Assembly: GCA_008632985.1 (NCBI GenBank)
Contig: QPGO01000011.1
Location: forward strand, 434,001-498,000
Length of the DNA stretch: 64,000 nucleotides
From: Psammoneis japonica
Lineage: Eukaryota
Direction: 5' to 3'
Positions 9,201 through 64,000 of the stretch are shown here, in pieces. Every line of letters begins with the position of its first letter. Position 1 is the stretch's first letter. The notes under the pieces are model-generated. The model saw only the letters and a program-made list of their open reading frames with translations, was not told where the DNA came from and did not search any database. The position numbers and the translations under genes are program-made.

Positions 9201-9476
9201 AGCGCATCCCTCCCATCTGTTCCATGTCAAGTGCAACCGGCTCTTTCAAATCTTAATGATCTGATACGGGATCAGAGGAAGCAAGACATTGATCCATGCT
9301 GTTGTCCTGTCTTCCTACAATACAAGCTGCAGCAAAGCTACAGTGTGACGGGGTGCCGACCAAGAGGTCGACCAGCGCATTCTAAGGATTGCCCAAAGAG
9401 ACAGCAGTCAAGGAGGCAGATGTTATCATTACTAGGCATACTTTATGTGTTGCTACTTTTGTTGACATTCTCGTGA
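6225..9476 (+). mobile_element. Intronless 1083-aa putative DDE transposase (Mutator/IS256-like, DUF6729-like) with Cys/His zinc-binding clusters
   Basis: Motif order SDHTF...NEKGQV...HYSDTWP...RLGLFHWMHRI...SKLEKAH resembles D..D..(D/C)xxH..E transposases; CxxC/HxxxC clusters at both ends; TIRs not identified. Confidence 0.6.
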
Positions 9477-40433: not shown

Positions 40434-40703
40434 AATTTACAAATTTCACCAGATGCTGTGAGCATGCCTTGAACGAAGCATAGCGTCTACTCGAGAGCTA
40501 CCATAGAGCATAGAGATGTGTCGTGACGCGTTCTTCGCAGTTCGCATGGTGGAGAGAAGGTGTTGATGAGAGCAGAGCAGCACAAAAAGATACACTGGCT
40601 GTAAGAAGATCGCATCGCGCGCATCGCCGCATCGCGCAGTTGGCGCCTCCATCCTCTGGGCACCCTCTAATAGCCCTACCATACGGTTGCCCTAAACCCA
40701 AAC

Positions 40704-42642: not shown

Positions 42643-43775
42643 TTCTGTAGGCAGAAGGCCGGCAACTCGTTCTGATCCATTGACTGCCTGGCCAAGAACC
42701 ACTAAGAAGTAACTCGAAATTAATGTGCTTAGGAGTCTCACAGAGTGGAGCTCATCTTGGTCCAGTTCTGCTCCGCACAAGGGGGGTTGGGTAAAACCCA
42801 AACCCTCCGCAAGGTCCCGTGCAGAGCACGGCACGGTGGGGCTCAGGGAAAGGACCAGACGAGTTTGCTTGGGGTGCTTCTGGAACGAGACCATTCGGAG
42901 GCATCCTTTGGCATTGCACAATGTTGGAGCCTCTCACCAGCTTGATCTTGAACTCAGAATCAGAGACAACGCCAGATGCTGTTCCCTTGACTTCGTTGAC
43001 GGGCGTCGCCCAAAGCAAAGCACCACAGGCAGGTTCTTCCTTGACCTCCGCCGACTGACTCCCACGGCCCAATCAATGGAGAGAGCACAAATCCAGGGAG
43101 TGGTGGGTGGGCAGCAAAAAGACAGCTTTTCCAGTGCTTTGGGATCATCTGGTCATGTTGATCAGAGTTCCTGTCTCAACAAAGCTGGAAAAGTGAGAAC
43201 AACAAAAACTGAAAGTTTGGCCGGTCACAAAGGGCAAAGACTGTGACCAGTCATCTTGGCATGGAGGCACCCTCCTCCAAAAAAGGCATGTTTCCAATGG
43301 ACAAGACTTGTTGCCTGGTCTTGCTGTGTGCAGTTTGTCTCCATCTAAACTGGGGCACAAGGAGGGCTCAATTCTGCAGGCAGAATGCCAGCAGCAACTC
43401 GCTCTGATCCATTGACTGCCTGGCCAAAAACCACTGAGAAGCAACTTGACATTAACACACTTAGGATTCTCATGGAGTGGAGCTCTTGGTCAAGCTCTGC
43501 TCCACACAAGGGGGGTCAGGTAAAACCCTGACCCTCCGCAGGGTGCTGTGCAGAGCACGGGGCCTTGGGGAAAGGACCAGACACCAAGTTTGCTTGGGGA
43601 GCTTCTGGAACAAGACCAGCAGTGGGAGGTGTCCTTCAGCATTGCACAATGTGTTGGAGCCTCTCACTGGCTTGATCTTGAACTCAAAATTGGAGACAAT
43701 GCCAGATGCCATTCCCTTGACTTTGTTGACAGGTGACGTCTGAAGCAAAACACCGCAGGTTCCTCCTTGACCTCT
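42643..43775. repeat. Diverged ~400-bp direct repeat pair (~42643-43050 and ~43372-43775)
   Basis: Shared tctgatccattgactgcctggccaa...gcttgatcttgaactca...ttcccttgac; many differences are at TA and CG sites. Confidence 0.9.
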
Positions 43776-46700
43776 GGAAAAATTGTTTGAGCTCCATGAA
43801 AATTCTGCTTTCCTGGGCCACCAACTGTGCTGAGCACCTTTGGTCTCAGCACTTTGAAAGAAAAATCTTTGACTGTCTTCATCTGTCATCCTCTTTGGCA
43901 CTCCACCATGGCTGTTGACATGGTCCTGCACGCCACAGCAGCACACATGGCTGGGATCTGCTGCTTGCAATGAGATGCTGGCATGCTGTGATGTCCTGTT
44001 GTCACTGGCTGCCATTCTCCCAAACACAAGTGGCAGTGCTCTGGTTGTTTTTCCCTGTTGTTGCTGTTGCTGTCGTCATCATCATCGTTGCTGTCATCAT
44101 TGTTGTTGTCGTCATTGTTGCCACACTTGTGTTTTTGTTTTTGCTCATTTGTGCTGCTGCCTCTTTGTGCTGCAGCCATTGTGTGGTGCTGCCAATCTTC
44201 TTTTGCCACAAAGAAAACATCTGCCAACAGCAGCTGAGTCAAAAAAGGCCAAAGTCAAACCCACCTCCTTGTTCAACAATTGTGACTCAGCCAATGACAC
44301 TGCTGTGTCACACTTTGAAACATCATTGCTGCAGCCACAATTGGCTTTCATCATTTCCAAGCTTGACCTTGCAACTCTCTGTGTTGCTGGCCTTGGGAAT
44401 GTGTTGATTGCTGTGTGAGCACCCCTGCTGGAGATGGCAGCTGCTGTGGAGATGTCATGCTGTGTGTGCAAGGGCCCAAAGGAGGCCAGCATGGCAGAGG
44501 AAGGTGTTTTTGACAAGGACAGGGGATGGCTTTTGAAAGCCCATGCTGCTGTGTGACCATGCTGAGCTGAAACTTGTGGGCTTGCACAACTTTGCCTTGG
44601 ACAAGGCTGCAGCTGACAAAGACAGAGGTCTCTTGGCCATTGGGGTCAATGGAAAAGTTGTCAGAGAATGCAAGGTGGACAAGAGAAAGGAGCACAGCCA
44701 TGGTTTTGATCAGAAAGCTTGGTTTCAAAAGTTGCATGCTTTGGTGAAACATCTGTGGTGCCACCTTTGCTCTTTGGGATGAGTGATTGATTGTCTGCCA
44801 TGGCAAAGGGACAGAAATGTGTTGACGCATCATTGTTCTGGTGGAAAGGTGCAGCTGCTGGTGGCTTGTGAGGGATGCTTGGCTGTCACTCACCTCCCCC
44901 AACCAAGGAACCCTGCCATGATTGTCTGCAATGGCAGCAGCCATTGTCAACACTTGAGTCAATCACATGGCAAAGGAAATGGTGCGTGTTGTTTGTGCTC
45001 AGCCAGAGTTGCTTTTTGTCCATCTCTTGACATTCAGCACAAAACAATGCACCATTTGCTTTTTGCTGCTGGCGGCAGTGGCTGACTCTTGCACCCCAGC
45101 CATGTGCAGCACCCAGCTGAGCAGCAACACCAGGAGCCGCGTCAGCAGTGCCAGCAGCTGGAGAGCAAATCTTGTGCCAGCAAGAAAGAATGACAACAGA
45201 TGGACAAGACACAGAAGCAGTGTGAGCTTGTTGTTTTAAAACAGAAGCAAGCATGAAACAACACACAACTTCCTTTTTGCTGCTGGCACCAGTGAGTCAT
45301 TTGTGAGTGTGTGAGTGAGTGTGTGAGTGAGTGCGCCACTGCAGAAAGGACGGAACTTTGTGATGTTCATCATGATGTCATCCATCATCCATGCACAAGC
45401 ACCATTTGGCAATGGCACCAGCACACACAATGGCTGCTGTTCATTTCCATCCTCATTTCTGCACATCACACACTCACTTGCCACTCACCCCCGAAAGGCT
45501 TGTTTCATGGATTTCAAGCTCAACTTTGTTTTGACTTCTCAGAAAGCCCCCATGAACTTGAATGCCCTCAATGCTCCTTCAAGAAAGTTGAACAACTCAG
45601 CTCCATTGAATGGCCCATTCCATTTGAGATGACAAGAAGGAGGGACAAACTCTCAAATGGTGATGGAGCAGCCTCACACATGCAAACCAACCTGCCAAAC
45701 AGCCTGCACAAAAGAGTCTGGAATTGCCAGCCACTGGGTGTGTTCAACAAAAGATTGTCACAGCCTTCTCATTTTGGAGCTTGATTTTGGGCTATGTGGA
45801 AAATTGTGGTTTGGAGAAAAATGTCCAAAGCTGTTGGAGTTTGCTGTCTGTTGCAGTGCCACCAGCGCAGCTGTGCACATTCATTTTCTGTGTGACAAGC
45901 TTGTGGCATTTGGTTTGACACAAATTGAGGCACAAAAACAAAATGTGCAACACTTTCCAAAGCAGTGTGCATCTGGGCACTGATGGCATTTCTGCAAGAC
46001 TTCCAGCAAATTTGGCCATTTGTGCATGTGACAGCACCAAGTCCATTGTTGTGACATCAGCTTTTGGCTGTTTTGGAGAACTGGTGCAGCTGGTGTTGCA
46101 ACCTGGGGCTTTGATGCTCCTCCATCTCAGCACACACAGAATTTGCCACTTGTGCAGCTTGATCTCTGGTGCTTTCAGAGGAGGAACAGACCAGCGCTGT
46201 CTTCTTGCTGGCTCTGGGGATGTCTGGCACCAAACTGAGAAGATGGGGTGTGCAAGCCTTGCAGCAGGCAAAGATGAGCTGCCCTCAATGCCATGGTGAT
46301 CATTTTCACATGATGAAACCGCACACTTCCAAGCATGGCTTTTGCCATTTGTCTGCCAGCTCGTCTGTGCTGTCCCACATCATGCAAAGCACTGTCTTCT
46401 TGGCCTCTTTGCCAAGTGGCCCATTGCACACAACAACAAAAGGAGTGAAATGATGCTGTTGATCACCAAGGCAAGGCTTGAGACACTTGCATTTTTTTCA
46501 TGGTCCTCTGTCAGAACCTGCTCTGGTGTCTTGGACAAGCACGACCCTTGCCTGTGCCCACTGCTCAAATGTCCCACAGCTGTGTCTGGCACTCAACCCC
46601 ACTGTCTGTGGGCTGAGACATCTCCACAGTGACTGTCTCTCAACTTGCTTGAGATTGCAGCAATGCTCAGCAAACTGTTGGAGTTGCAGCTCTTGGCAGC

Positions 46701-49700
46701 TGGGCTTTCTGCCCAAGGTGCAGCCATCATCAGATGTCAAGTAAAGAACTCACATCCATGTCCACTGCAGCGATGCTCAGGTGGATCTGGTGGAGTGCTT
46801 CCATGTTGCTGCAAAAAGAAAGTGTCACAAAACTCTTTGCACAAAAGCTCAGCCAGCACCAGCACTCAGCATTGGCAGGTGGGCTGACAACTGCACACCC
46901 CACATGTGCCCAGTTGCTCATGACACAGGCCTTGTCACCAGGTCACAAATTTTGATGATTGACTTGCATGATTTGGAGCACTGAGTGCAAGTGATGCATG
47001 TGGAAAGAGGAAGAACACCCCATGTTTTGTCCAAAAAATTTGTGTTGCTTCTGGGGTGAAAACACATTGAGGTTGATCTGAGCACCGGCAAGTGTTGTCC
47101 GTGGAATCAAACTCACAAGCTGAGCACAGAAATCACACCAGTTTCCAAGCAACTCTCCTTTTGACTCTTTGTTTGCCGCCGCAATGCATTTGCACATTTT
47201 TTGGCACAGCTGTGCCACCCCACAAAAGAAAAACAACTGAGCGGCACTTCCATGTCACAGTTTGAAGTCATTGCACAATCAACAGCACTCCAATGCCCTG
47301 CATGCAGTGAGAGTCAGCAGTGCAGCAAGGTGTGCTCTGATGTCTTGGGTTGGTTTTTGTTGTTGTGTTGTTGATGTGTTTTTCACTCTTTGTGGTTTGC
47401 AGCTCTCCACATCAGTGCCCATGAAATTGTCCATTTTTGTGGGGCACTTTGTTGAGCCCATGTTTGTGTGGCATTTGGCCCTGCCATGGTGTTGAATCTC
47501 TTAGCATTTTTGCCCTAGATTGCAGTGCATTCTTTGCATGAAATCATGTGTGGTTTCAGCTCACTCCTTTTGTGCCAGCTTTTCAGCACAAACTTCAAGT
47601 GCAGCTCCACATGTTTGGACAGATTTTCAAGATGACAGCAGGCCAGGTTTTGCCATCCTGTTTTTCTTGTCATCTTTCTTGTTCTGAGTTTTCTTGTGCA
47701 GCTGACTTTCAGCTCTTGAAGAATGTCACCTGGAACTGCAAAGTGGGGCCCTTGCAATGTTCTCTTTGCATTTCATCATTCTGGCTCAGTGCAACTTCCC
47801 TTTGCATTTTTGCACTTGTGATCCCATTTTTTCATTGGCTGGACACAGGAAAAGAGCTGAGAAGTGTGGCCTGTTTGAGAAGGATGGGAAGCCAACCAGC
47901 GGTCACATGTGCATTTGTGTTGTCATCAACGACTTCATCTGCAGCCAGTGTGCTGGCAGCTGCGGTGTGGCCGGGGGTGCTCCATCTTTGTCAAAAGTTA
48001 AACCAGAAAATGCAGCAGGCTTGGTGCTCACTGGCAGCAGGCAGTGGCTCACCTCCTGTGGCAAGGCTTCCACAGAAAGACCAGGTGTGGCAACCATTCA
48101 CAAAAACATGCAATGGCTCACAGCCTGAGCTCTCATCACCACTGCTTGTTGCATCCAAAATGCCATCCACAGTGGCCATGGAGGTGTGTTTGTTTGGTGG
48201 CAACTCCACCTTGTGTGAGATTGGCACTGGCTCCCATGTGTGACAGTCTTGATCCTGCAGCAGCATGGCAAAAGCTAAGATTTTGGCTTGGATTGCTGTG
48301 TGTGCTTTGCTTGTTTCTGCGGAGGCCAGGGCAAAGAGTCTTGGTCTTGCGCAAAGCTGGCACAACCTCTCTTGCTTCTTGGCATGCTCTGCTGTCTCAT
48401 TCCAGAGCAAATTGCAAAGCCTCTGTTGTTGGTGGTGGCTGAATTGACTCTCACAAAGCTTGGCCTTTGAGATGCAGGCACAAGCCTCTGCACTCACCAA
48501 CTCCATGAACCCACATTCCCTTGACTTCTTCTGCGTGCTGTCTTTCATGTTGGACTTTCTTGGATGATTTGTCCCGGCGGGCAGTTCTTTCATCCTTCTT
48601 TCAAGTGCTCAAACTTTGGAGGCATGTGTTCAGTTTTTCTCTGCCACCATGCTTGTTTTTGGTGGCTCCCATGTGCCATGGTGGCTGGGCTTGCTTGTCC
48701 ATTTTTTGAAAAGCACAGCAACCTTGTTTGAAGTGTGGCGAGCATCTGGCCAGGTGCCGTTGTGGCTGGAAGCTGTGGTGTGTGGTGTGTGATGGTCATT
48801 GTTTTGCAGCAGTGCACCGAGAGCAGCAAAGTTGTCCCTGCCACCCTTTTGGATGCTGCTGGGGAATGTGAGTCTGCCACCATGGTCAGCATTGGCATGG
48901 CATGGGTGACAGCAAGACAGCGACACATGGCTGGCTTGCTTTTTCTATTTTCTTAACTTTGTGGTTTTGCTTGCCAGCTCATCAGCACTTTTTTGCACAC
49001 CATGGCAGGCACAAACACACAACACAGTGGCATTGCTGCTCTCCTGATGTGCTGGAGGGCCTTTTTTGATGTTGAGCAGTCTCCCAGAGCCAGCCCTTGT
49101 TTGTTGAGCTGCTTTTTCATGGTTTTCAGTGCAAAATCAGTGCTGTTTGTAGTGCTGGCAAGGTGGGTGTGGACAATGGCATGGTGTCTCCATGCTTGCA
49201 CTCAACTCCCAATTTTTTTGTTTGTGCAGCCCAGCATTGCCAGAGCTGTTTGGTGGCTGCAGCTGCATCCCCAGCACCTGCCCCAACACACCTTGTGATG
49301 CCTGGGCCAGATCAAAAAACCAAGGCAAGGTGTTTGGCCAGCCTTGTTTGCTTTCCTTGGAAGACCATCCATCCATCCATTTGCCAGCTGTCTGTTGAAG
49401 ACAATTTTGTCTCTTGTTTGTTGCCTCTCCTGCCAGATTGACAATGAGGGCACATCACACGCTGCAAGCTCATGAGATGAACAACCTGCACAGAGAAAGG
49501 CCTGCATTTTGCATGCAGCTCTTCTCTCAGAGTTGCCTTGGCAAGGATGCCTGCTGATGTGCTCCAGCTGTGCACAAATGAAAAATTGCAAAAATGAAGA
49601 CACTTCAGCACATGGCCCCGCACAGACCTCATTGGGTTGCCAACTTTGAACTGACTGCCAACTTTGAACTGAAAACTTGCAAAACCAAACGGCACATCTC

Positions 49701-50100
49701 TTTCATCATTTGTGTGCATTTTTTGTGTGCCAACAAGACCTGCCGTGCAGCGCACCAAACCAGAGTGACTGCTCTTTTTTGCACCCCACTTTCGTTGTTT
49801 GAGAGCTGTGCTGCAGCACAGAGGGGGCCATTGATCATGAGCAGAGTGAAGTTTCTTTTGCGTGGCGTGCACTCGGGATGAGTGAGCGAGCACAACAACA
49901 AAACTTCCAGTCATGCAAGCAGCTGTTCATCAGGAGCTCACAATGTCATGATTTTGATGCCACATTTTCTGCTTCACATGCAGGAGGTGGTGGTGTGGCA
50001 TGTGTCCATCATCTGGTGTGGTGCACCTGCCGGTGCAGTGCACGATGGCAAAACAATGGAACGCATTGAGAGGGCGGTCCAGAGATCGCCTGGTACACTT
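42700..50100. mobile_element. Heavily degenerate repeat/transposon block depleted of both TpA and CpG
   Basis: Near absence of TA and CG, excess TG/CA, only Cys/His-rich spurious ORFs; family not identifiable by eye. Confidence 0.65.
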
Positions 50101-51169
50101 TTTACGTAGAAACTACACGAGAGCCAAGCACGTACATTCCCACACAGACGCAGTGCAAAAACACAAAGCGGCACTCCATCACGACTCCTCTCGACACACC
50201 ACCTGACGACAATCCATCAAAATGGCATCGTCCGCATCTTTCTGTAGCTCCTCTTCACTTGCCCATTTCTCCAAAGGGCAGGGACAGCTCATACATTTCT
50301 GTTGTGACAGAACAATGTAAATGCAAGTTGTTTTTTCATTCCAAACTCTCAGAATGCAGTGCAACATGTTGTCAAGGCGAACTCGCACGTTGGCGGTGAC
50401 AACACCAGTGAATGTCCACTCCATGAAAACAACAGAGACATGATGCCCCAGAAAAACAAGCTCTACACTCCCATGATAAGTTGCAAAGCTAATTCTTCTT
50501 TTGGGCTTGCACTCTTGTGCTGTTTTTGGAGACTTGGCATTGTGCACAATTTGCCCCGACTTTAACATCTAAATGTGTTGCACAGGCTTAGCAGATGAGG
50601 CAAATGAGTCACACGTTTCTACATCATAAACTGCCTTGCATCTGTAAGACTCAATGTAAGCCATCATAATTGCCATGGCTCGTTTCTCTGTCGAACAAAA
50701 CTGCGCATCACCTTCTGGAGGCACGTCAAATGCGCGTCAAAATTGCTCGACGACAAATCTGAGCTGCCAAGAGCTTGAACATCTTCAGACACCACAGACC
50801 CAAGCTTCCACATTTATTATGAAGTCATCTGGATGCTGCATCTGTGACTTGGACTTGTCGTCAGACTGCCGTGGCCGTTGCAAGGTAGAAGTGACATTCA
50901 AAGCAAGCACTTCTCTCTCAGGGATGGCCCATGGCAAGGGAGACCCTACAGAACAAAACAACAATGAGGAAAGACAATGTATGTGTAAGTTGAAAGAATA
51001 TGAGCGTGTGAGTACTCAACGAAATGCACAGCATGAATGGTGATGCATAAGTTGCGTGTTGATGCAACAAAATCGGCGGTGTCAACACCAATCTTCAGTT
51101 CAAAATTTCACCATGATCTACCCATGTGAACCTGTGTACTCTCGAGCTTGTCACATACCTTATGCTATG

Positions 51170-51395
51170 ACGTGTGATATTCCGTTGAGAGTACACTACA
51201 AAGTACCTCAGAAACAACCGTATTTTTGAAATCGGCGAAACGCCATTGTCCGTGTTATTTTGCGTGTTATTTTGCGTCGCGAGCCAGAAAACACACCCAA
51301 AAACTGTTCTACAGGGCGAAATGTACTGAATCTACACAGATTTGGGTTGTACAGGCCACGTAGAAATGAACGGCGAACTGTGTACGCCACTTAAG
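51170..51395. repeat. TA-retaining copy of a ~220-bp dispersed element (inverted homolog of 1560-1780)
   Basis: Reverse complement aligns with 1560-1780 (ttttctggctcgcg, aaaataacacggac, tggcgtttcgc, atttcaaaaat). Confidence 0.9.
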
Positions 51396-51533
51396 TGTGA
51401 AAGTTCACTGTCACAGATGTAGAATGCGTTAAGTGTGAAAGTTCACTGTCACAGATAATGTGCAATATTACATAATTTGAAAACTTTGGCGCCAAAAAGA
51501 AGCCTTAAGTGTAGAAGTTCACTATCATAAAAT
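51391..51533. repeat. 28-bp direct repeat x2 (51391-51418, 51429-51456) plus degenerate third copy (51505-51533)
   Basis: ttaagtgtgaaagttcactgtcacagat twice; third copy ttaagtgtagaagttcactatcataaaat. Confidence 0.9.
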
Positions 51534-51759
51534 ACGTAGTATATAAAATATTGGATATGAAAAAGATATAATTTAAATTTTTGGCGCCAAAAATGTGAAA
51601 ATTTGGTCGACTTCAACCTCTTTCTGGCTTCGCACTTTTACGTGCGACGCAGTACAAGTTGTACCTGTACGTGTTTTTCAAAATTTCTTTCCACGATCAA
51701 CGATCACATCATCGATCGTTCATTATTTGCATTCGAGAGACACCAAACTTTGCAGAACG

Positions 51760-52295
51760 ATGAAGCCCTCCGTTGCCATTGTCGCCGTCCTCGCCCTCGT
51801 CCTGGCTTCTGCCTCTGCCGAGCTTCGTGGTGTCTCCAAGCTTCGCGGTGTCTCTTCCGAGCTGCAAGGTGCTCGCAAACTCCCGGTGAGTTTCTCTGCT
51901 GGCGATGTATTGTTTGGGGCTCGTTGTTCTCGTTATTGTCGGTTCTTTCCCTGTCTGTTTAATTTCGCACTGACGGTGGCGTGCGGGGTGGCAGTAGCAG
52001 GATTCGTCTTTGTTTGGTGCCAAATCCTTCTTTTCCTCTCCACTGACGCTGCCGCTGTTGCCGCACATTTTGTCAGTATTCCTATTCCAGCTATAAGTCG
52101 CCGAAGTCGCCGAAGAGCCCCAAGTCGCCGAAGAGCCCCAAGTCGCCGAAGAGCCCCAAGTCGCCGAAGAGCCCCAAGTCGCCGAAGAGCCCCAAGTCGC
52201 CGAAGAGCCCCAAGTCGCCAAAGAGCCCCAAGTCGCCTAAGAGCCCCAAGTCGCCTAAGTCGGGAAGCATGAGTTCCTACCGTGTCAAGGTTTAA
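51760..52295 (+). CDS. Secreted silaffin-like protein, 114 aa, 2 exons (51760-51885, 52077-52295): signal peptide, RKL site, YSYSSYK(SPK)18
   Basis: GTGAGT..CAG phase-0 intron; exon 2 translates YSYSSYK(SPK)18SGSMSSYRVKV*. Confidence 0.85.
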
Positions 52296-52999
52296 TTACT
52301 ACAGTCGAACTGAGGTGGTCGGTTCCTGGTGAGTTTGTCATGGTGTTGATCGTTTAGTAAATCTTGTTGTTGCACTGTATCGCTTTTCTGCTGCGATGTG
52401 GACAACGGTTTATTGTCTGCTGGTTGGTTGTCATTCTTTGTGACATTCTTCATCCTTTCACTGACACTGCTGACACCCCTCATTTTCTTCGTCTTCTGCA
52501 GAAATTCTTATCTTAGTATCATGCCAGCAACACTAGCGGGAGTTTTGGTGGCAGAGTGGGTGCATATATTTAAACTAAATGATTCCAATTGCAGATGATG
52601 TGCGACCTTATTGGTTTGATTACATCATTGTTTTCTTTTCTGGCTTTAGCAATGCGCATAGCTGCCTGCTCCTGTCTCGATTGTCCTCCATCGATACAGT
52701 GCCATGGAGAAGTCTTTCGAGTGCGCAACCATGTTGTATTTTGCAGAAAGTAGACTCGTACGAGCACGGAGGAAAACGTACAGTGACACAGAGAGAGTGG
52801 GGAAGCGCAGAAGAGTAAAATGATGACACGTCCCTGCGCATTCACGTACTCTATATGTATAAAACGCAAGCGAGCATGTAAGCAGCTAGAGCAGAGAGGT
52901 TCCCACTACCACAACTCCCTCATGCGAGTCTTCAGCCTGTGTACGTTGTACGGTATGGTGGAAGTCAAACGATACCGTAGCCCCTTGCCACTTGTAACG

Positions 53000-54140
53000 T
53001 AGGTATTGAAACCCACCAAACCATACCACGCAGCACAGCGCAATGATGAACAGCAGCCATACTGGACTAAGTTTGAAACAGGAAATAAAGCAATGGATCG
53101 CCGCTAATAACTAGGGCCTAATAATCGTAATCGCCATCCTCGGGTCTGTTTCATTGTCAGTCTCATCATCGCTATATCCCTCATTCACGCCTTCTCCCTC
53201 CTCCGCAGTTCAGTAGCATCGTTTTCAGCGTAGTCATAGAATCCTCGTCTGTTGTTGACGACTCCCCGTACATGGCGCTACGAGCCTTGTCTGGATCAAA
53301 ACTCGCATAGAGGCGGTACCGAAAGAAGGGACAGGAATACACTTGGCGGATCCATCCTTTGAGAGATAGAATCCCAAAGCCTTTTTGTTCATTTTGACAA
53401 CTCTTGGTGTCTGCAATAAGAAAAACGAAGAAAAAGCATGATGATGATAGACGAATATCGTGTCGGCCCAATTCTGTAAAAAAGAAAAACAAGACAAGCA
53501 AAAGAGAGATTAGAAACATGGGCATCGAATAGGAGGCATGCGGTTTAGAAGAAGAATCGAGCACACTGAACACAACAGAAGTAAACTAACTACTCACAAT
53601 ACACCGAGCTTTCTTATTTAAGGATCGCTTGGTTTCATACTTTGCTTGGCACCACCACATCCGCCCACGAATCGCGTCCCTTGCACTTGACGTTGAAAAC
53701 GCTTGCTGTTTGGATTGGCGAGGTTCGTCCCAGGCCGCCCGCCGGATTCGTCGACACGCCCGTCAATAGCTGCTGTTGGAATCATGATGTGAGCTTCTTG
53801 CTGCATCAACTGTAAACCATGGCAAGGGCAGGTCATCCTCTTGCTCATCATCATTGTCATTGACATCTGCGATATTGCTCGAAGGCGACATATCCAGCTC
53901 AATGGAATCATCCACCAAGGACGATCCGCGTTTTTCTTGACGGTAACCTTGATACGGTAGGGCCCTAGGTTTGGAGGACATGACACATGACAACATCTAG
54001 GTAGCGGATTCCTCCCCTCTTTGTCAACTTCTTCATATCCTGGCCAACTTGATCCTCCTCGTCTTCACCACCACGCAATCTCTGTCTTCTTCACTCTCAT
54101 CAGAAGATTTTCTTTCTACACGTATTCGATGGAGCATCAT
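53000..54140 (-). CDS. Probable multi-exon hypothetical protein; structure unresolved (frameshifts/introns)
   Basis: Several short protein-like minus-strand frames and a GTGAGT donor near 53597. Confidence 0.3.
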
Positions 54141-54309
54141 GACGAGAGACTTGTTGCAATCACATCACGAAAATACGGGTGAGAGCACAGACCACGCGGA
54201 ACAAGAAAAAAGTACCAGCAAAGAATGTGACTGTAGCAACGTTTCTGATAGCAACCAGCAACATGTCAGGAAGAAGTGCTTCACAAGTGATGAAATGACG
54301 TCAATCCCA

Positions 54310-55213
54310 TCACCCGCTGGCTACAGCAAAGTCTTTTTCGGGCACACGGACGAATACATCGGGCTTGGCGCGTACAAAGTAGAACAATAACGACGGTTCA
54401 GAAGCTAGTTGTGCCCATAAATGACACCACAGCGCCGGAGGGACCGAGCCTTCGTCTCTCAATAGCCTTCTTCCTGCTCGATTCAATCGTAGATAAAAGC
54501 AAAGTTCTTTCTGCAACCGGCTATCCGCCAAAGTAAACCGAGAGCTGTCGTTTCTCATTTCCAATTGTTCCAGAAAATAGTTATGTTGCAATCCTTCTCG
54601 AACTAAATGTTCTCTTGCTTTTTCGCTGAGATTGTTTCTTCCGAGGTATACTTCTCGCAGACTAGTGCTGGTCTTTAGCATGGTTGATATAGCTTCAATG
54701 CCTTCGCTTCCAATATCATTTCCTTCCAAATCTAACTCCTGAACGCTTGATTCACTCAAGAAATTTGCCAGTGCAATGGCGCCAGGAGAGCCAATCCTAT
54801 TGTCCGCCAGCAATAATTCCAGCACCGATTCATTGTCTCTCAACAACTCCACCAGTTGCACAACACCAAGGTCTTCGATGCCTTTTCCTCGCAGGTCGAT
54901 CACAGATAAACCAGAGTTCTGTTTCAACTCCTTAGCCAAAAGCGCTATATCGCGCAACACGGGAGAATCCGTCGGCGAGCTTGACGTGCTGCTTGAAGAC
55001 GAAGATGATGATTCCCGGCCCTGCGGAGGTGTGAGACTTGGGTTTTCGTGTCTCAATCGAATAGACGCGACACAACCCATGGGAAACATCAGCAACGAGC
55101 GTAGGCGCCCGTAATATGAGATCTAAAACAGCGCTGAGTGATTTGAAGCGCAACAAGCAACCACCAACCACACTCTGCCTGAACTTTGAGATGAAGCGGG
55201 AAACGGTCGCCAT
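54310..55213 (-). CDS. RNI-like leucine-rich-repeat protein of the diatom-expanded family; frame break near 55095
   Basis: LxLxxNxIG repeats; C-terminal FYLRLNRAGRRLL..PPALW..LLFYFVRAKPD. Confidence 0.8.
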
Positions 55214-55329
55214 GGCGTATAGCGTCCTTCCGTCCGTCGCAATGTCGGGAATCAATCGATCCGCTCCCTGCCTCCGAGCTGGAATGATGTGGTGCAAACA
55301 GCACCGAAGTTTCACAATAATTCGCAAAC

Positions 55330-58300
55330 TCCCTCCGACAGCACAGTGCTGTACAGTGTGACAATGATTCAGTCACGCAGGTTGAACATAATTGAAATCC
55401 ACTCCATGGCCAGATGCCGGGCATCGCCCTCGTTCCACAGTTGCACCCTGCTGTTTCAGCATCATCTGCTCTTTGCACCATTCAATGGACACTCCTTCTG
55501 ATGATGATCTTTTCATGGTGGCACTCGCACCATGGTCATCTTTCTGCTGCTGCACTCCTTTGCGTCTGCAAATGCGTTGGTGACAAAAGAAGCACCTTTT
55601 GGGGCAAGCCCGCAAAGAAAACAAAACCTTCAGCCGACACACATCGCCACATGTGCACGCATCTCAATGGAAACTTTTTAGAATGGACATCGATGTTTCT
55701 TGGTTTAGCTTGGTCTCTGGCAGCTGCATCTCAAACCCATCACCGAGCTGTGCTGCGGCTGCCTGGACCTGCGTTGTGCTTCGAGCATTGTGCGCCATCT
55801 TGATTTTGAGACATGGCATTTCTTCAGATGGCATGAGCAAGGCACTGTGGGCATGTGCCATGCCTGGCCATCTTTGTCTCATGATGTTCATGGTGCCATG
55901 TGCACAATTTGGAAGCTGCTGCTGCTGGGGCAGCAGGAGCAATCAAGAATTGAGACAATGTTTTGGTTTTTGGGATGGGAATTGGAGGAAACACTCCATC
56001 ATGTGCGGTGCTCCACTTCAAGGTCCAGGCGGACAGGAGAGACTGGCTGAACTCCAAGAAAAGCTTGCAGTTGGCACTGGGCTTTGGAGCAAGGGTGGCA
56101 GAAGGACAGAGTTCAAGCTGGCCCATTGGCGCTGGCTCACAGTTCACAATCTGTCTGCTGCTGTCAGCACAGCATGAAACAAGAACACTGCTCCTTTGTG
56201 TTGCAGTTTCCAATCTCACACCTGACAGTCTGGGGGATTGATGTGCCACCTGCCTTCGACCTGGTGCTGCAGAGGTGCTGCTGCATTTCTTGAACTTCAG
56301 CCCCACACATGGATCAATTTTGCTGCAACCCAAGCACGCACCACCTCATCTGTCTGTCATGTGATGGCTCCATCATCTTGTTTCCCAGTGTTCTCAGAAA
56401 CTTCTTGCAATGATCCATGAACAACAGACCCACGGCCCACTTGCATGTGTGATCTCATGGGTCTCAGCAGCGGCATCTCTCCTCTCATCATTTGTTGACA
56501 AAAGTGCTCATCTTGACAAGCAGATCTGCTGCAAATGCAGGCAAGGACTTGGTGTGGATGAAGTCAAAACTTTGGCCAGTTGCTTGATGGATCCACAGGA
56601 GCATCTCACATGAGTGGTTCAAAAACCACATTTGTTTTGCCTTGGAAATTTATGTCTCATGTTCTGTGTGGAAGCTGCAGGATCTTGTTGTGAATGACAA
56701 GCAATGGCATCACTCAACTTGGACTCCACAATGTGCTTCTGTGATTTCTTAGACTTTGCACAACAACAAGTCATGAAACCTCCTCTCCTTTTTGAGCACA
56801 AATGTGAGAGGTGTCAAGAAGGGACCATCTTGTTGAATTTTTGGCCAAATGATCACAATGGCTGCCACACACATCACATCAAAACAGTTCTTCATCTGTG
56901 CCCACTTGAAGATCACAGGAGAGCACACTGCACACAAGAGCTTGAGACTGCCCAGTTGCCAAAAGAGTCCTCTTCAAAACATGTGGCATGACCGATCCAT
57001 TCATTGTCCTCTGCATCTTCAACTTCATCACCAGCAAACTCATGCCTGTGATGATTTTCAGCCTTGTCTTTCAACTCTTGTGCTTTTTCAGGTGACCATC
57101 TCATCCAGTGCTCATGAATTTGGCACTGATGGGGAGATTTTTGGCTGCCTCTGGAATCTGATGACCGAGATGCACTGTGATCATTCCAGCACAGTGGGTT
57201 TCTTTTGTTGGCATGTGCCTGTCAGCAGCTGCTCTCTTGGATCACGCAAGCTTCTTGCTTGGAAACATTGCCTTGCTCATCATTGTTGTCATTGGCATCT
57301 TCAACATTGCGCAAAAGCCACATGCCTGGTGCCCAGCTCAGCAGAGTGAGGTTGCGTCATGTTGTCGCTCCTCCCCCAAGGTTTGAAAAAGGCACCCAGC
57401 ATTGTGACGACGCGTTCCAGCCCTGGGTGGGACTCCGTGTGACATTGGGCCCGTGGAATTCTACGTGCGAGCTCCGCAGTGCGAGAATTTAATCAATGGA
57501 TGTGTTTGTCTTCAACATCAAATGAGTGGCCAAGTTTGTGGCACGATTGTGCCTCTTGCCACTTGACGTTTTTGCAAATGCACCTGCCCTGCGCGATTCT
57601 CAAGGGTGGTCGGTTGCCACTTTTTTCAGCTCGAATTTGGCCGAGTGGCTCGTGTTTTGCATGATTTTTCCTGAATTTCACCGTGCTTTACCATGGTGAA
57701 AACAACAAGCCACAAGTCTGTGACGGAGGTGGTCCATCCACCAACTCTCATTTGTTTTGTGCTTGTTGTGCATCAAAGATTGCACATGCATGAAAAGTTG
57801 GTAGACGGCAAACTGCGTTTTTGAGAAACATCGATGATTGTCATCATCGTTGTGCTTCGATCGCAGTGTTGATGGTTCTCGTTTTCGTGTGCGACCGGGT
57901 GTGACTGTGGACAATTCTTGTGTTCAAAAATGAACACTGTGAAAAACCTTGTTCAAATGCAACGGTGATTTTAGGATGAACGCGGGGATGACCCCCCTTG
58001 AGACATCACAGAATCGCGCTGCAACAAAAAATGTCAAAAGTTTTTGTTTTGGATGGATCGCTCAACAAGTGCACCGTAAAATGACACAAAATGTCAGAAA
58101 ATCACGTAGAATTCTACGTGCGCGACATGCGATGAGATTCAAAAAACTGTTGATGTCACAGCTCAGCAGTGCGAGGTCCCACCTGGACCTGGAGCGCGTC
58201 TGACACCGCTGTCTGGCAGATTCTTGTTCTCCTCCTCTTCATCATCAAGTGATTCTGCCACAACTTCACTTTTGTCATGTCCACTTCCTCAACTTCAGTG

Positions 58301-58930
58301 GAGCCTCCCTCCCAAAAAAAGCAAAATTTCTTTTGGCACTCAATGCATCGCAGGTCGAAGGGCTGCTGCCTCTTCGCTGGGTTCTGGGTGCCTTCTGCCT
58401 TCTGCCTTCTGCCAACTTGTTGTCAAGGCTGGTTTTGTCACATTTTCCAACTCAAGCAAATGCTCCACTCTGTGTGGACAGCAATCTGAGCATTCACAAA
58501 TTGACAGGATTTGAACAGGATTCAGGTGCGCGCGAAATGTTGCGCGCTGTTTAGTTTGCCGCGCACAGTTTCTGTGTGCTTTAGTTCCGCGCGTTTGCGC
58601 GCGATGCAGTTTGCTTTCGAGCCACAAGGCTCACAAGAACAACAACAGCAGCCCGATTGTGCCGACTTGCACGTCTTTCGGCTCCTGTGACAGTCTCTGA
58701 GCGGAGACTCATCTGCTGTTTGGACAGCAGCAAGGAGTTGTTGTTTGAATTCTTGCCATTTGCCTTCAATTTCTGTCAGATTGACAGTCTTGCTCATTGT
58801 CAACCCATTGAGCAACTGCCATCGTCGTCATTGATTTGCCGACAATGCCACTTCAATTCTGCGTGGACCTCCGCATGTGTTCTACGCACATCGGCAAGTC
58901 TGCGCGCATTCAACACCAGGCCAGCGTCAT
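55330..58930 (-). mobile_element. Degenerate TpA-depleted element with minus-strand coding remnants, interrupted by a MITE
   Basis: TA nearly absent, CG reduced; broken Tyr-free protein-like frames on both sides of the MITE. Confidence 0.55.
57409..58200. mobile_element. MITE (792 bp), ~25-bp imperfect TIRs, 4-bp TSD TGAC
   Basis: tgac|gacgcgttccagccctgggtgggac ... gtcccacctggacctggagcgcgtc|tgac. Confidence 0.9.
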
Positions 58931-59305
58931 AAAATCGCTGACTCGACTGCAATCTTGGTTGCAGTTCGATTGCGGATTGCGATCAAAATGATTGCAATCT
59001 GCTGATTGTTTGTCTGGCGTGTCACAAAGATCGCAATCGTGTTCACGATCGATCGCGATCGACTCGTGTCTAAAATTTAGTCGTGAATCGGGATTTTCAT
59101 CGTACACGGGACTAAAAATTGACCGAAACGTGGCACACATTCACGAAAAATGCGTCTTGCGCAGAGGGCGCCCTGCGTGGGCGCGCGAATCCGCGCGGGC
59201 CAATCGCGATCGCGATTGCAATCGATTGTCACATGTGGCAAGCGCGCGCGCATTGCGATCTTCGATGCTGCGAAGCGCGCGCAATCGATGGTTGCAATCC
59301 ATGAT

Positions 59306-62300
59306 TGTTGGAGAAGTTAACGATTTTACAACGCTGCACCAGGCATCGGCAGGAAGTTAACATCACCGTCAAGTCTCCTCACCGCTGGATGTCTGGATTG
59401 ATTGTGCCACCTTTCATCGCTGAAGACACACATTCAACGGTTGTGTCCAAGTCCATCCTTGATCCTCATCCCTTCATGTGCCCATTCAACGGTTGACGGT
59501 CAAGAACCCTGCATGTTCAAGGATCTTCGTCGCTGCAGACACACACACATCCATGTCTTACGGCCAAGAACTTGCACCCACTCTTTGGACTGCGGCTTTG
59601 CCACCACTCTACAAGCACGCCGAGTCTGTTGCACCTCATCCACCCCGGACTGCTGGTGCTCCACAGTTCTGCCAGGTCCACGAGGATGACTGTGAGAGCA
59701 AGCAGCCGTGATTGCAGCCTGCGTTGGGGCAAGGGTGTTTTCCCGCGTTTGTTCATTCGTCCACAGTGCCTGACGCCTGCGTCAACTGGCCAGCCTGATC
59801 GGGAAATCCAACCGACACAAAACAAGAATGGTTCGGGGGTCTTGTCCACCTCTGGTCAGCTCACCTGCAGGGGTTTGCAACCCGCTGCTCCACTCGCAAG
59901 CAACCCAAAGCGCCGCTGGCTGCGGGTTCGGACGTGCCGGCACAACTCTGCGGACCGGATGGGAAGTTTAGCACTTGACAACGAACGGGATGGCACAACC
60001 CGGCGACTTTTGATTTTAAGATAGTTCAAGATTTCAAGTCAAGTCCATTTCAAGTCAAGTCTGTTCCCACTCAAGTTTCAAGTCTGCCTCCGCGTCCCAA
60101 CAAGAATCGCTTGTCCTGACACCGCTTTTGTCTGCCATGGTTCTCACTCGTCAGCAACAAACCGATGGTTTCGAGTGCGTTGTTGGAGCCGCACTTGCCC
60201 AAGGTGCTGGAAGCCCTCTTTGTTTGGCTTTGACCCATGACGACACGGACTCGCACCAAGAACTGTTCACGTTCACACCTTCCCAAATCGACTCGCTTGA
60301 GCACGACAATGGCGCTAATGTGATCCCATTGCCCCGAGGTTATAAGAACATGTTAGCAGCTCCAGTCAGTCTGTGCATTGTCAAAGCACATGAAGGCCTT
60401 GATGTTGCCAATGACTCCTCGTTGTTCATGCATGAGGAGTTCCTTGCCTGCCGCCTCAGCCCCGACTGCATGTCTTCTGTGTCCGTCGGCAGCTCACCTC
60501 TCGCACCTCCGCATGTCACCAACCCGACCAAGGCACGCAACCCGGTGCAAGACTTCAAGCGAGGCATCAAGCGTGACCCCACTGCTTTCACGGCTCTCAA
60601 ATCTGACAAGCAGTGGCACACTTGGCACACCTCACTTGTGGCACAAGCCCGTGCCCAAGATGTCGAGTGCATTCTAGACTCGTCGTGCAAACTGACCAGC
60701 CCCGAAGACAAACTGCTCTTTGCTGAACAGCAAAAGCACATGTTCACCACATTCGAACGCATCCTTCTCACCGACAAGGGCAAGGCTCTCATTCGCGAAA
60801 ATGCAGGGTCTTCTGATGCCCAGACTGTCTGCCGCGCCTTGTCCGAGTGCGCGCTTGCCTCCACCCGCGCATCCATCGAGTCCTCCACCTTGCTCATGCA
60901 CCTCACCACCGCACGCCTTGGTGATGGCACTTGGAAAGGTCTGACCCACGGGTTCATCCTTCATTGGCAGGATCAGTTGCACAAGTGCGAGGCACTCATC
61001 CCAGCCAGTGACCACTTCTCTGAAGGACAGAAGCGCGTCATGCTCGAGAATGCTCACATCCTGTCGAGGAACTCCGCGCCATCAAGAACCAAGCTGATCA
61101 GCATCGCACGCAGAGTGGCAAAAGCCTCACGTGTGATCAACATTGTGGCTTGCTCCTCTCCGTGGCGGCTCAACACGACAGTGCGTTTCAACCCAAGATG
61201 ACACCTTGAGCTCCCCGACGCGCCACATGCGCACACGATGTCCACTCCGAGGAACCATCCGATGGTGTGTTCCATGACATCGACAGCAACATTGACGTCC
61301 TTCAGGCTGACGCTGCCTGCACCCGTGGCCCCAGCCTCGCCGGTGACCAATGGAAACGTCTCCCTCCCGACCACCAACGGATTTGGGATTCGTTGCCCCA
61401 TTCCTCCAAGGCGATCATCCTTGAGCATTCTCGTCCACCTCCCCGCAACCCGCGAGCCAGCAACTGCCATGAGTCCGTTGCGGTCAACCTTCACGACCAA
61501 CAACTTGGGAGTGACGGCAATGTCAACTTGTCCAACACGACTCCTGCTGACTCTGGTGACCCCGCTCCAAATGTGGATGCCCCTTCAGACAATCCCATTC
61601 TGGCGCACCTCACCAAGTGCAAGCCACTGCCACCCGGTGATCTGCAACACCTGTTGTCTCCCAACCAAGCCCCCAACGCCAGTCGACCGGGCCCATCCGC
61701 CGCTCCCTCTACCTTGCCTGCTCCTGCAGATGACACAGAACTTGACGGCTGCACTTGCCGCCGCGTCAACAACCACAATGTCATTTGCTCTGCCTCCGCT
61801 CATTGCTCCACACGCACTGGTGCTCTGGTCGATCGTGGAGCCAACGGCGGCATTGCTGGCGACGACGTCCGTGTCATTGCACGCACCTCTTGCCAAGTCG
61901 ACGTTCAGGGCATTGACGACCATCAATTGGTGGACTTCCCTGTTGTCACCGCTGGTGCCGTCATTGAGACACAGCGTGGTCCCGTCATCGCCATCCTCCA
62001 TCAGCACGCATGCACAGGAAAGGGCAAGACCATTCATTCCTGCGGCCAGCTCGAATGGGCAAAACATGATGTCAACGATCGCTCTGTCAAGGTGCCCAAC
62101 GGCTTGCAACATGTCGCCACCCCTGATGGCCATGTCACCCCAATTGACATCAAGGGTGGCCTGCCTCATGTTGCCATGTGACCCCACACTGACGCCGAAT
62201 GGGACACCCTGCCCCATGTCATCCTTGCCGGTGATGACACATGGGATCCTTCCATCCTCGATCACTCTGTCACTGACGACGACCAGTGGTGCGACGCGAT

Positions 62301-64000
62301 CTCTGACCTGCAGGACGATCCCACTGCCAACCTGTTTGACGAATGCGGCAACTGCCGTCACCGTGTTGTTGTCAACAAGGCCATCGTGTCCGCCTCCTTG
62401 TCTGCCGATCACGCGTCCGCCCTCGATGACCACCTCATTCCGAATGACAACATGTTCTACGAGTGTCATCTGCATGCGATTGACCCCAAGGACGATGACG
62501 TTCCGCCCCCGGAGCGCACTGTGCAGCCCAAGGACCCCCCCTGCGAGTCTCTTTGGCCTCACTTTGGTTTCCAACCTGCCGATGCGGTTCGTCGCACTTT
62601 CGACTGCACCACGCAGTGCGCCCGCATGCCCGCCGGCACACACCTTAAGAAGGCCTGCAAATCGCCCAACCCTGCCCTCAATGTGCACCGCCGCAACGAG
62701 CCTGTCGCCACTGACACCGTTCATGCCGACACCCCGGCCGTTGACTTCATCAGCGACCGTGCTCAAGTTGAGATCAGCAACAAGGTGCTCGGGATCCTGC
62801 AAGCCCTCTTTGTCTCCAGCTGGCAAAGTGAGCCTCACCAGCAACACCAAAACTTTGCTGAACGTCGACACCAGACCGTGAAGCGCATGGCGAACACTGT
62901 CATGGACCGTTTCGGTTCACCTGCCCACACATGGCTGCTGGCGCTCATGTGTGTGTGCTTCACACTCAACCACACAGCGTCCCCACATCTCCACTGGCGC
63001 ACGCCCCTCGAGACTCTCACTGGCTCCACCCCAGACATCAGCCCATTGCTTTGCTTTCACTGGTGGGAACCCGTGCACTTCCACCTCGATGACTCTGATT
63101 GGCCATCCGAATCCCGTGAGTTGCGTGGATGCTTTGTTGGCATTGCTGAGCACGTCGGCCACCAGATGACCTTCAAGATTCTCTCCGACGAGACTCAGAA
63201 GATCCTCTGCCGGTCCAACATATGATCTGCTGCCACCGATCCTGCCGTTCGAAACCTGCGTCTTGATCCTCCTGATGGGGAGCCACCTGAACCCATCATC
63301 AAATCTCGCCATGATGACAACCCCGTCGATTCACCCGATGGGGAGATCAGGACACCCAAGATGCCAGTTGACGGGCTCCAGTCCCAGGTGGGACTTTTTG
63401 TGACATTTGCCCCATGGAATTCTACGTGCGAGCTCTGTAGTTCGTACTCTGGTCAATGGACACATTTGTCTTCGACATGAAACAAACGGCCAAGTTTGCA
63501 GCACATGTGTCTCCATTCGCACTCGAAGTTTTGGACAATGCGCCTGCCCCACCATTCTTAAGACACTCGAGAATGGCGTGGAAGAAAAAAATGTTAAAAG
63601 TTGTTGAATGGATCGCCTGACAATTGGCACCAAAATGATGCAAAATTTCGCCAAAATCACGTAGAAATGTACGTGCGCGACATACGACGCGATTCAAAAA
63701 ACTGTCGATGTCACAGTTCAGCAGTGCGAGGTCCCACCCAGACCTGGAACGCATCAGTTTTCGATCCGCAAGACATCATCGGACACATCTTCCTCATGCA
63801 GCCACAAGAGGATGGACAACACCACAGAGCTCGCATCGTCAAGGCCGTCGAAGACCACGAATGGAAAGTGAACGGCAACCCCGAGCTCACCAAGTTCGTC
63901 TGCTCTGTCAACAACGACGAATACGAGGAAGTCCTGGCCTGCAATGACATCATGAATCACATTGAGCAAGAAGATGAAGACACTGCTGTTTGGAAATTTT
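59306..64000 (+). mobile_element. Ty1/Copia (CoDi-like) LTR retrotransposon, decayed and truncated by window end; putative 5' LTR from ~59306 (TG...) to ~59980, gag from 60137
   Basis: Gag DFKRGIKRDP, protease ALVDRGANGG, integrase RRNEPVATDT..ISDRAQVEIS..SEPHQQHQNFAERR; TGA stops, frameshifts, deletion in the integrase core near 62745; LTR limits are tentative. Confidence 0.9.
63370..63755. mobile_element. MITE (386 bp) of the same family, 4-bp TSD AGTT, inserted in Copia pol
   Basis: agtt|gacgggctccagtcccaggtgggac ... gtcccacccagacctggaacgcatc|agtt; removal restores ATG CCA GTT TTC GAT CCG. Confidence 0.92.

Follow-up and report, generated by a model that had tools for sequence, protein, structure and literature searches.

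In ascomycete fungi, repeat-induced point mutation (RIP), set off by duplication, turns C into T at CpA, with TpA raised and GC content lowered. In animals, ADAR editing has repeat-derived double-stranded RNA as its substrate and APOBEC editing the single-stranded cDNA of retroelements, and both result in a one-strand bias; ADARs are, to our knowledge, known from animals only. A further kind of hypermutation was reported from mutation-accumulation lines of Bigelowiella natans (Mettrop et al. 2026, bioRxiv 10.64898/2026.01.13.699255). According to passages of that preprint, 230 of the 231 mutations in two integrated viral regions were A>G or T>C, all of those lay at TpA, and rates were about 1000 times background, with de novo events in some lines at about 1e-7 to 1e-6 per site and generation. 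The targets were integrated giant-virus and virophage DNA. The same passages describe TpA-poor, CpA+TpG-rich clusters elsewhere in the genome, an enrichment of reverse-transcriptase and DDE domains among TpA-poor coding sequences, and an ADAT2-like candidate enzyme. Here we analyse a stretch of 64,000 nt from the diatom Psammoneis japonica (assembly GCA_008632985.1, contig QPGO01000011.1, positions 434,001 to 498,000 of the forward strand; positions below are counted from its first letter). A dead Copia-type retrotransposon at its right end, together with several unrelated blocks of DNA, is almost devoid of TA. Very probably, this is best explained by DNA-level, TpA-targeted hypermutation of transposon-derived or otherwise non-host blocks, of the kind seen in B. 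natans.

Dinucleotide abundance is given as rho, the observed/expected ratio (symmetrised). The host background for TA consists of positions 2000-12000, 16000-42600 and 51500-55300, leaving out the depleted blocks, a repeat gene at 12-15 kb and a repeat at 50.1-51.4 kb; it has a TA rho of 0.57, or 41 TA per kb. A first scan of the whole stretch for TA in 1-kb windows returned values of 0.4-0.8 across most of it and drops to 0.00-0.2 at 1-2000, 12-15 kb, 43-50 kb and 55-64 kb. Read evidence comes from exact-word contigs of one run (X1), in which single-copy depth is about 55-80 and in which summed depth is not a formal copy number. Among the sequencing runs listed, the stretch was found in one study only, with no RNA run among them. 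Four sharp-edged TA-poor blocks emerge, and a Copia-like gag-protease-integrase region is present only in the last of them, which is divided in two below (expected counts are at the host ratio):

1 to 1780: TA-poor block, cut by the start of the stretch; 9 TA seen, 62 expected; CpG rho 0.64; positions 1562-1781 are a mutated paralog of 51170-51392.
About 42793 to 50093: 7.3-kb block at single-copy depth; 13 TA seen and 245 expected within 43350-50090; CpG rho 0.14, TG/CA rho 1.89; TA is back sharply at 50094.
55390 to 57340: block at single-copy depth (71-105), starting about 270 bp upstream of a leucine-rich repeat (LRR) gene; 4 TA seen, 73 expected; TA rho 0.03, CpG rho 0.23.
57341 to 59305, no strand assigned: high-copy sequence upstream of gag, made up of a copy resembling a miniature inverted-repeat transposable element (MITE) at 57409-58200 and a probable long terminal repeat (LTR) or leader; 16 TA seen, 71 expected; TA rho 0.13, CpG rho 1.05.
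59306 to 63364, plus strand: gag-protease-integrase part of the dead Copia-type element; 17 TA in 4059 bp, 108 expected (Poisson p=1e-27); TA rho 0.09, CpG rho 0.78.

The TA rho of the depleted blocks thus lies at 0.03-0.13 against 0.57 in the host, and the Poisson p for the deficit ranges from 4e-15 to 6e-86 over the five intervals. The longest run free of TA measures 178 bp in 26 kb of host DNA, against 1716 bp (43521-45237) and 1035 bp (60675-61710) in the blocks. The borders are abrupt: TA is dense again from 1814, ends after 42792, returns at 50094 and ends after 55389. A preliminary description, made from the letters alone, had let the affected domain begin at 59306; it starts at about 55390, and further blocks lie at 1-1780 and about 42793-50093, while the dip at 12.2-15 kb belongs to an unrelated repeat gene.

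The sum of TA, CG, TG and CA is level throughout, at 229-258 per kb in every block and 239 in host DNA, from which we conclude that TA and CG have been turned into TG and CA; the latter two are raised to a rho of 1.5-1.9 in the depleted blocks. In 57341-63364 and 1-1780 TA is lost and CpG kept (rho 0.64-1.05), whereas 43350-50090 (CpG rho 0.14) and 55390-57340 (CpG rho 0.23) have lost both. Since TA loss occurs alone as well as together with CpG loss, two separate processes are at work. The earlier remark that TA is scarce and CpG retained around the Copia frames therefore holds for 59306-63364, as does its separation of the phenomenon from CpG decay and its observation that the direction is opposite to that of fungal RIP. 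With the loss of TAA and TAG, TGA is the sole stop codon remaining in the depleted blocks, and spurious long frames of up to 559 aa occur in several frames and on both strands, such as 61202-62881 (plus), 61585-62916 (minus) and many in 43-50 kb.

The coding part of the Copia-type element and what follows it comprise:

60020 to 61201, plus strand: gag-like frame, 393 aa stop to stop, matched by 22 of 58 related loci; 8 Tyr-consensus columns read 4 Cys, 2 His, 1 Phe and 1 Val.
61210 to 62181, plus strand: protease-region frame, 323 aa, matched by 37 of 58 loci; 5 Tyr-consensus columns read 2 Cys and 3 His.
62182 to 63225, plus strand: integrase-like frame, 347 aa, matched by all 58 loci; 10 Tyr-consensus columns read 4 Cys, 4 His, 1 Phe and 1 Leu.
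63365 to 63754, plus strand: nested 390-bp MITE-like insert, kin to 57409-58200; 8 TA, rho 0.30 (half depleted).
63755 to 64000, plus strand: Copia frame resumed past the insert and cut by the end of the stretch; 1 TA; unmatched among the 58 loci (E<=1e-5).

Here the gag, protease and integrase frames were compared by tblastn with 58 related metagenome loci, and a column counts as a consensus column if 8 or more loci cover it and 50% or more of them agree. The integrase-like frame has 438 relatives, the best at 51% identity; those with names are 'Integrase catalytic domain-containing' proteins of Cylindrotheca and Nitzschia. Pfam returned no match for the three gag-pol pieces, and no rve in the stretch or precomputed for the relatives. 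We assign the element, on sequence comparison, to the Ty1/Copia kind because the intact relatives L005 and L006, each a single frame of 1880-1894 aa, carry a Copia-type reverse transcriptase (RVT_2) past the integrase part; its own reverse transcriptase would lie beyond base 64000. This copy is dead: within 59306-63364 the frame shifts near 61052 and meets an in-frame TGA at 62179-62181, an internal part of the integrase is deleted at 62746/62747, and another TGA stands at 63223-63225. Other X1 copies have additional letters at 61052/61054 and show loose ends at 62746/62747. Three gag-pol pieces had been described at the outset; the second and third in fact share one frame and are split only by the TGA at 62179-62181.

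At 57341 the summed X1 depth climbs from about 77 to at least 59,891. It is greater over 58008-59341 than over the coding part, which is compatible with an LTR; the 3' end of the element lies beyond the stretch. The joint 63364->63755, which skips the 390-bp insert, has a summed depth of 14,902 in X1, and the insert is missing from most copies. X1 contigs of other copies also join 58784-58919 directly to 59342-59822. The 422 bp in between (58920-59341) are CG-rich with many CGATCG-like words and are skipped by other copies' contigs in all four runs (joint 58919->59342); either this copy has gained them by insertion, or their deletion is a common variant. The MITE-like copy at 57409-58200 has an extra internal segment, 57605-57996, and contigs of other copies omit about 398-426 bp there. 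Summed depth suggests that the MITE-like family is very abundant, and the read consensus of its other copies has TA where the copy at 57997-58030 has CA.

Tyrosine, whose codons begin with TA, has nearly vanished from the Copia frames. The 943 codons of 60128-61201, 61267-62181 and 62386-63225 hold 2 Tyr, 31 Cys and 53 His, in agreement with the initial observation. At the 23 Tyr-consensus columns of the 58-locus comparison not one Tyr is kept; they read 10 Cys (TGC/TGT), 9 His (CAC/CAT), 2 Phe, 1 Val and 1 Leu, while in the same comparison conserved columns other than Tyr are kept in 355 of 490 cases. A second comparison, of the integrase protein with the 60 best of 120 relatives among the 438 matches, gives the same result: 0 of 11 Tyr columns kept (5 His, 5 Cys, 1 Phe) against 175 of 213 other conserved columns (Fisher p=1e-8). 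The share of Tyr is 2.4-6.9% in all 120 relatives listed and 0.3% here. Twelve short motifs had been put forward as sites where Tyr is replaced; ten of them contain a column that is Tyr in at least half of the relatives and Cys or His here, while EQQKHM and KILCRSN were not confirmed. Neighbouring host genes are normal, as had been stated: the Dus gene (40704-42302) has 2.8% Tyr and 55 TA, and the LRR gene (54310-55122) 2.2% Tyr and 33 TA.

The change is specific for TpA and indifferent to reading frame. Conserved residues whose codons start with A (Ile, Met, Thr, Asn, Lys, Ser, Arg) provide a test across codon borders: where such a residue has changed to its G-first counterpart, the preceding letter is T in 10 of 18 cases, compared with 2 of 79 for unchanged ones (p=2e-7). 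That the A-to-G effect ignores the frame is as expected of a mutation process. A paralog pair outside the Copia element allows a direct count. The copy at 51170-51392, in normal DNA, has 13 TA, and the copy at 1562-1781, in a depleted block, has 3. Between them, transitions affect 10 of the 24 A/T letters that stand in TpA and 5 of the 94 other A/T letters (p=3e-5), so the enrichment at TpA over other A/T contexts, on which the preliminary description had made its case depend, was found. Twelve aligned TA became 5 CA, 3 TG, 1 CG and 1 GC, with 2 kept. Over 1595-1748 and 51214-51366 the two are 79.7% alike in four letters and 98.1% alike after purine/pyrimidine recoding. The cut-offs of the B. 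natans preprint (clusters of 3 or more 1-kb windows, at a TpA rho of <=0.43 and a CpA+TpG rho of >=1.52) pick out 43001-50000 and 55001-64000; by block, TG/CA rho is 1.89, 1.84 and 1.53, with 1-1780 and 57341-59305 borderline at 1.49.

Flanking letters matter too. From host DNA to the blocks RTAY falls from 12.1 per kb to 0-0.6 and RTAR+YTAY from 21.5 to 0.5-4.1, and YTAR falls from 6.5 to 1.2-3.6. Surviving TA are enriched in TTAA (4.4-fold) and in CTAA/TTAG (3.8-fold); ATAC/GTAT, 15.6% in host DNA, accounts for 0 of 59 survivors. A pyrimidine (T or C) stands two places ahead of the A in 74% of surviving TA, against 43% in the host (chi-square p=1e-10). The process prefers purine-T-A (RTA) over YTA. 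On the side of the products, the classes RTGR+YCAY and RCAR+YTGY rose alike, and a purine precedes the outcome in 4 of 10 Cys and 5 of 9 His, with no difference between the two.

Both strands are hit, and copies have been hit separately. Cys and His had been read as the two strand outcomes of a single TpA change, and TpG and CpA do occur in about equal numbers: sense A>G (Cys) and sense T>C (His) stand at 10 to 9. Between mutated copies 19 of 769 aligned dinucleotides are TG/CA double swaps, against 4 of 1172 between control paralogs (p=4e-5), as would be expected if one ancestral TA (or CG, in the block at 43-50 kb) had been resolved independently in each copy. Differences among the family copies in X1 are known for 40 of 628 differing places, that is, as a sample. 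In it, other copies have TA where the stretch has CA at 59408, 59429, 59454 and 59862 (about half of the summed depth) and at 63514, and they have CA at 59442-59443 where the stretch has TG. The half-depleted insert at 63365-63754 fits a process that continued after its arrival. Moreover, the domain 55390-64000 is composed of unrelated pieces, all of them depleted: a single-copy part, a MITE-like copy, a probable LTR, the Copia frames and the nested insert.

These observations bear on editing at the RNA level, in which an ADAR-like enzyme would edit A in UA of retrotransposon RNA before integration and reverse transcription would fix the changes. The best-identified target is indeed a retrotransposon, the borders of the blocks are sharp, and ADAR-type enzymes favour U before the edited A (as cited in a passage of bioRxiv 10.64898/2026.01.13.699255). 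RNA editing would, however, give sense A>G only, whereas here 9 His by sense T>C stand beside 10 Cys by sense A>G. It also fails to account for the partial depletion of the later nested insert, for the depletion of blocks at single-copy depth without retroelement features, and for a non-Copia repeat fragment that is mutated within 1-1780 and intact in its paralog at 51170-51392. We consider it very unlikely.

The blocks also differ widely in copy number. X1 depth is 57-145 over 44001-50003 and 55340-57340, whereas summed depth is 47,000-116,000 over 57341-64000 and 3000-5000 over 50004-51337. The repeat at 50095-51400 is thus at some 50-80 times single-copy depth by summed depth, yet has a TA rho of 0.47, near normal. 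It has no Pfam match and meets the depleted block precisely at 50094; perhaps it was inserted recently, or perhaps a domain border lies here. A duplication control is offered by two tandem alpha/beta-hydrolase genes on the minus strand (36461-37753 and 39189-40436), 82.6% alike over about 1.2 kb: both have 31-34 TA per kb, and they differ by 113 transitions and 96 transversions. Since a moderately repeated element and duplicated host genes are spared while single-copy blocks are depleted, copy number does not appear to be the trigger, and the term 'repeat-targeted' of the preliminary description is not supported. Targeting would instead go by domain, via chromatin state or foreignness. Host genes and promoters are spared, and the Copia-type element and MITE-like copies are hit; the losses are confined, as had been noted, to transposon-derived or non-assignable blocks adjoining normal host DNA.

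A neutral bias of the whole genome, with TpA transitions commonest everywhere and visible only in old unconstrained DNA, would agree with the under-representation of TA in the host itself (rho 0.57) and with the want of recognisable genes in depleted blocks. It is likewise very unlikely. The borders are sharp to tens of bases, TA is kept in host intergenic DNA, in the diverged tandem paralogs and in the repeat at 50095-51400, and the youth of the Copia family shows in retained CpG and in a likeness of at least 88% among very many copies, although about 90% of the TA is gone from this one.

A sequencing artefact, in which a modified base at TpA of silenced DNA is misread as G or C, deserves attention in that the platforms of the assembly and of X1 are without record and a modified thymine marks dinoflagellate transposons, as a passage of PMC11572971 has it. 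Against this, X1 contigs (depth 55-67) differ from 42793-50093 by only 9 letters in 2799 bp, 6 in 609 and 12 in 1670, and from 55390-57340 by 2 letters in 394 bp and 4 in 1270; the differences amount to 0.3-1%. Exact-word contigs of this sort imply accurate reads, as raw noisy long ones would not be put together in that way, and a mark on one strand would be expected to yield strand-conflicting calls instead of clean TG or CA. The same copies also bear frameshifts, deletions and insertions. Altogether, we regard an artefact as highly improbable. Of the 25 differences listed between 44092-50043 and single-copy X1 contigs, 24 are transitions, about half of them involving CpG; at two places, 47053 and 49614, the contig has TA, in the second case through a TG/CA swap together with 49613. 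All these are allele or strain differences in an already decayed block.

Could the Copia lineage itself avoid TA, for instance to escape a TA-directed nuclease, and have been amplified in that state? Very many copies are at least 88% alike, and a high coding GC may be a family trait. The idea is scarcely credible, given that about half of the depth at 59408, 59429, 59454 and 59862 has TA where this copy has CA, that conserved Tyr are lost even in the integrase core of a broken copy, that unrelated adjoining sequences are equally depleted, and that none of the 58 related loci comes near. Their TA rho is 0.31-0.99, the lowest 1-kb window has 0.27, and the median share of Tyr kept at consensus columns is 0.75; in the integrase region, the 17 of the 58 loci that match nearly the full query have 46±10 TA per kb against 2.9 here. 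Because neither the 58 loci nor the 120 proteins listed share it, the depletion is not a trait of the clade. The lowest TA rho among the 58 (0.31), like the lowest 1-kb window (0.27), belongs to the environmental locus L051:1-2759, whose 5 covered Tyr columns include only 1 Tyr, beside 1 Cys and 1 His. Here the same process may have acted more mildly in another organism, though the numbers are small. Seven loci (L021, L029, L035, L013, L009, L012 and L015) have a CpG rho of 0.05-0.24 but an ordinary TA rho of 0.48-0.85, and CpG decay without TpA decay is common in this Copia clade. The opposite polarity, with TA-rich copies mutated from CpA to TpA as in RIP and the present copy ancestral, is compatible with pairwise comparison alone, which is without direction, but is ruled out by outgroups that give a Tyr consensus at 23 columns (up to 58 loci) and 11 columns (60 proteins); the TA rho of 0.03-0.13 found here is far below the host and every relative.

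Hypermutation of integrated DNA at TpA, then, is our preferred reading. Transitions from A:T to G:C, on one strand or the other, convert the palindromic TpA step into TpG or CpA. They do so very efficiently within delimited blocks of DNA that derives from transposons or is otherwise non-host, and the action ends within tens of bases of host promoters. It takes place after integration, independently for each copy and nearly to completion. CpG decay is a separate matter: the younger, high-copy Copia domain has lost TA only, and the two older blocks at single-copy depth both dinucleotides. The effect would be the irreversible inactivation of mobile DNA, with conserved Tyr lost mostly to Cys or His; in its signature and in looking like a defence, the process is as the preliminary description had proposed. 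As to chemistry, it is a tentative proposal that an enzyme deaminates adenine in double-stranded DNA to inosine, which is then read as G; some chemistry other than adenine deamination or thymine modification is an equally possible answer, and an enzymatic modification of thymine that mispairs with G appears doubtful. More speculative, and on balance improbable, is the notion of TpA as a second 'epigenetic' dinucleotide, that is, of a maintained modification on silenced or foreign DNA in diatoms, chlorarachniophytes and perhaps the group of stramenopiles, alveolates and Rhizaria (SAR), which decays to TpG/CpA. If this were true, the hypermutation would be a fossil left by a heritable, so far undescribed mark on DNA and by its writer, and not merely by a deaminase attack.

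Several points weigh against this reading. Blocks 1-1780, 42793-50093 and 55390-57340 are not recognisable as transposons or viruses: 170 frames (88 of at least 80 aa and 82 of 45-79 aa) from 1-2000, 42700-50200 and 55300-59400 gave only chance-level Pfam matches below the curated cut-offs, none of them credible. For these three blocks, the label 'non-host DNA' rests on their composition, their borders and the scarcity of recognisable genes. How many of the family copies retain TA can be read at no more than a few sites (from a sample of 40 of 628 differing places), and X1, whose platform is without record, could come from the sample that was assembled. GC content is 0.57 in the Copia part against about 0.50 in its relatives, more than TA loss alone would add; other changes from AT to GC, or a trait of the family, may play a part. 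The preference in context was gauged against host DNA and not against the ancestral sequences of the blocks. Finally, no de novo event has been observed in the present case, the link with repeats or chromatin is drawn from one 64-kb stretch, and the responsible enzyme is only hypothetical.

A few features of the stretch remain to be listed. A self-comparison of the whole stretch after purine/pyrimidine recoding found no LTR pair for block 42793-50093. The Dus protein matches diatom proteins, the best named ones from Thalassiosira profunda (61%) and from Cyclostephanos and Chaetoceros (58%), and one without a name at 69%. The low-TA interval at 12.2-15 kb was rejected as a depleted block, its TA rho of 0.18 being due to the codon make-up of the Pro/Ser-rich repeat gene; at 12182-14977 (plus strand) lies a frame of 931 aa rich in Pro, Ser, Thr and Ala, with about 12 tandem 120-bp units (92% alike), older 96/168-bp units and a GC content of 0.61. 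Its product looks like a repetitive protein of the cell-surface or wall type.

If hypermutation at TpA is accepted, a saturated trace in a diatom, on another branch of SAR than B. natans, suggests a system of great age or wide distribution. Transposon decay and genome composition in marine algae, among which diatoms are globally important primary producers, would then be shaped by it to a major degree. Low TA with high TG/CA at a constant pyrimidine-purine sum offers a marker for surveys. The trace points to a natural enzyme that alters A:T pairs in double-stranded DNA, which is of interest for base editing. It also sets a trap for annotation, in that the loss of TAA and TAG opens false long frames on both strands and proteins are stripped of Tyr.

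How does the locus compare with what is known? Like fungal RIP, it inactivates mobile DNA irreversibly through hypermutation by transitions, prefers a particular dinucleotide and has sharp borders; unlike RIP, it destroys TpA, raises GC and spares duplicated host genes. With CpG decay driven by 5-methylcytosine it shares the conversion of a palindromic pyrimidine-purine step of silenced DNA into TpG/CpA, and the two co-occur in 42793-50093 and 55390-57340; the difference is that it acts on TpA, with CpG rho at 0.78-1.05 in 57341-63364 while TA rho is 0.09-0.13. ADAR and APOBEC editing also leave clustered transitions in retroelements, by deaminases in those systems, and ADAR favours U before the edited A; here, unlike there, both strands are hit equally, in integrated DNA. 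In dinoflagellates, again a SAR lineage, 5-hydroxymethyluracil made by TET/JBP is an enzymatic modification of the A:T pair that marks repeats for silencing and a conceivable route to T>C (PMC11572971); the passages of that source do not state a TpA specificity or a mutational outcome. A mutation-rate study of the diatom P. tricornutum reports, in the passages concerned, CG/CC/TG contexts and a GC>AT bias (PMC6604790).

The nearest relative is TpA hypermutation as seen live in the B. natans mutation-accumulation lines, and the process inferred here would be of the same kind. To judge from passages of the preprint, the two agree in that only A>G/T>C changes occur, only at TpA, with TpG and CpA as outcomes, in discrete non-host blocks that include single-copy ones. 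They differ in host, B. natans being a chlorarachniophyte and rhizarian and P. japonica a diatom and stramenopile; in the best-identified target, which here is an LTR retrotransposon of a very abundant family; and in degree, with near saturation here (rho 0.03-0.13) against a TpA rho of 0.45 for the nucleocytoplasmic large DNA virus (NCLDV) region, as passages of the preprint give it. The purine-T-A preference and the separate CpG decay are seen here, and live events in B. natans only. The preliminary description had known of no precedent. A TpA-only signature was in fact already on record for B. natans, while for diatoms no report of TpA hypermutation was found in the literature searched, including word look-ups in passages of PMC2806351, which deals with diatom Copia-like elements, of PMC6604790 and of a 2025 diatom transposon preprint; a look-up in the text at hand of bioRxiv 10.64898/2026.01.13.699255 likewise met with neither diatoms nor stramenopiles. 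Known before, then, is TpA hypermutation in one organism (B. natans, 2026 preprint); new are the diatom host, the LTR-retrotransposon target, the near-saturation, the preference of RTA over YTA and the independence from CpG decay.

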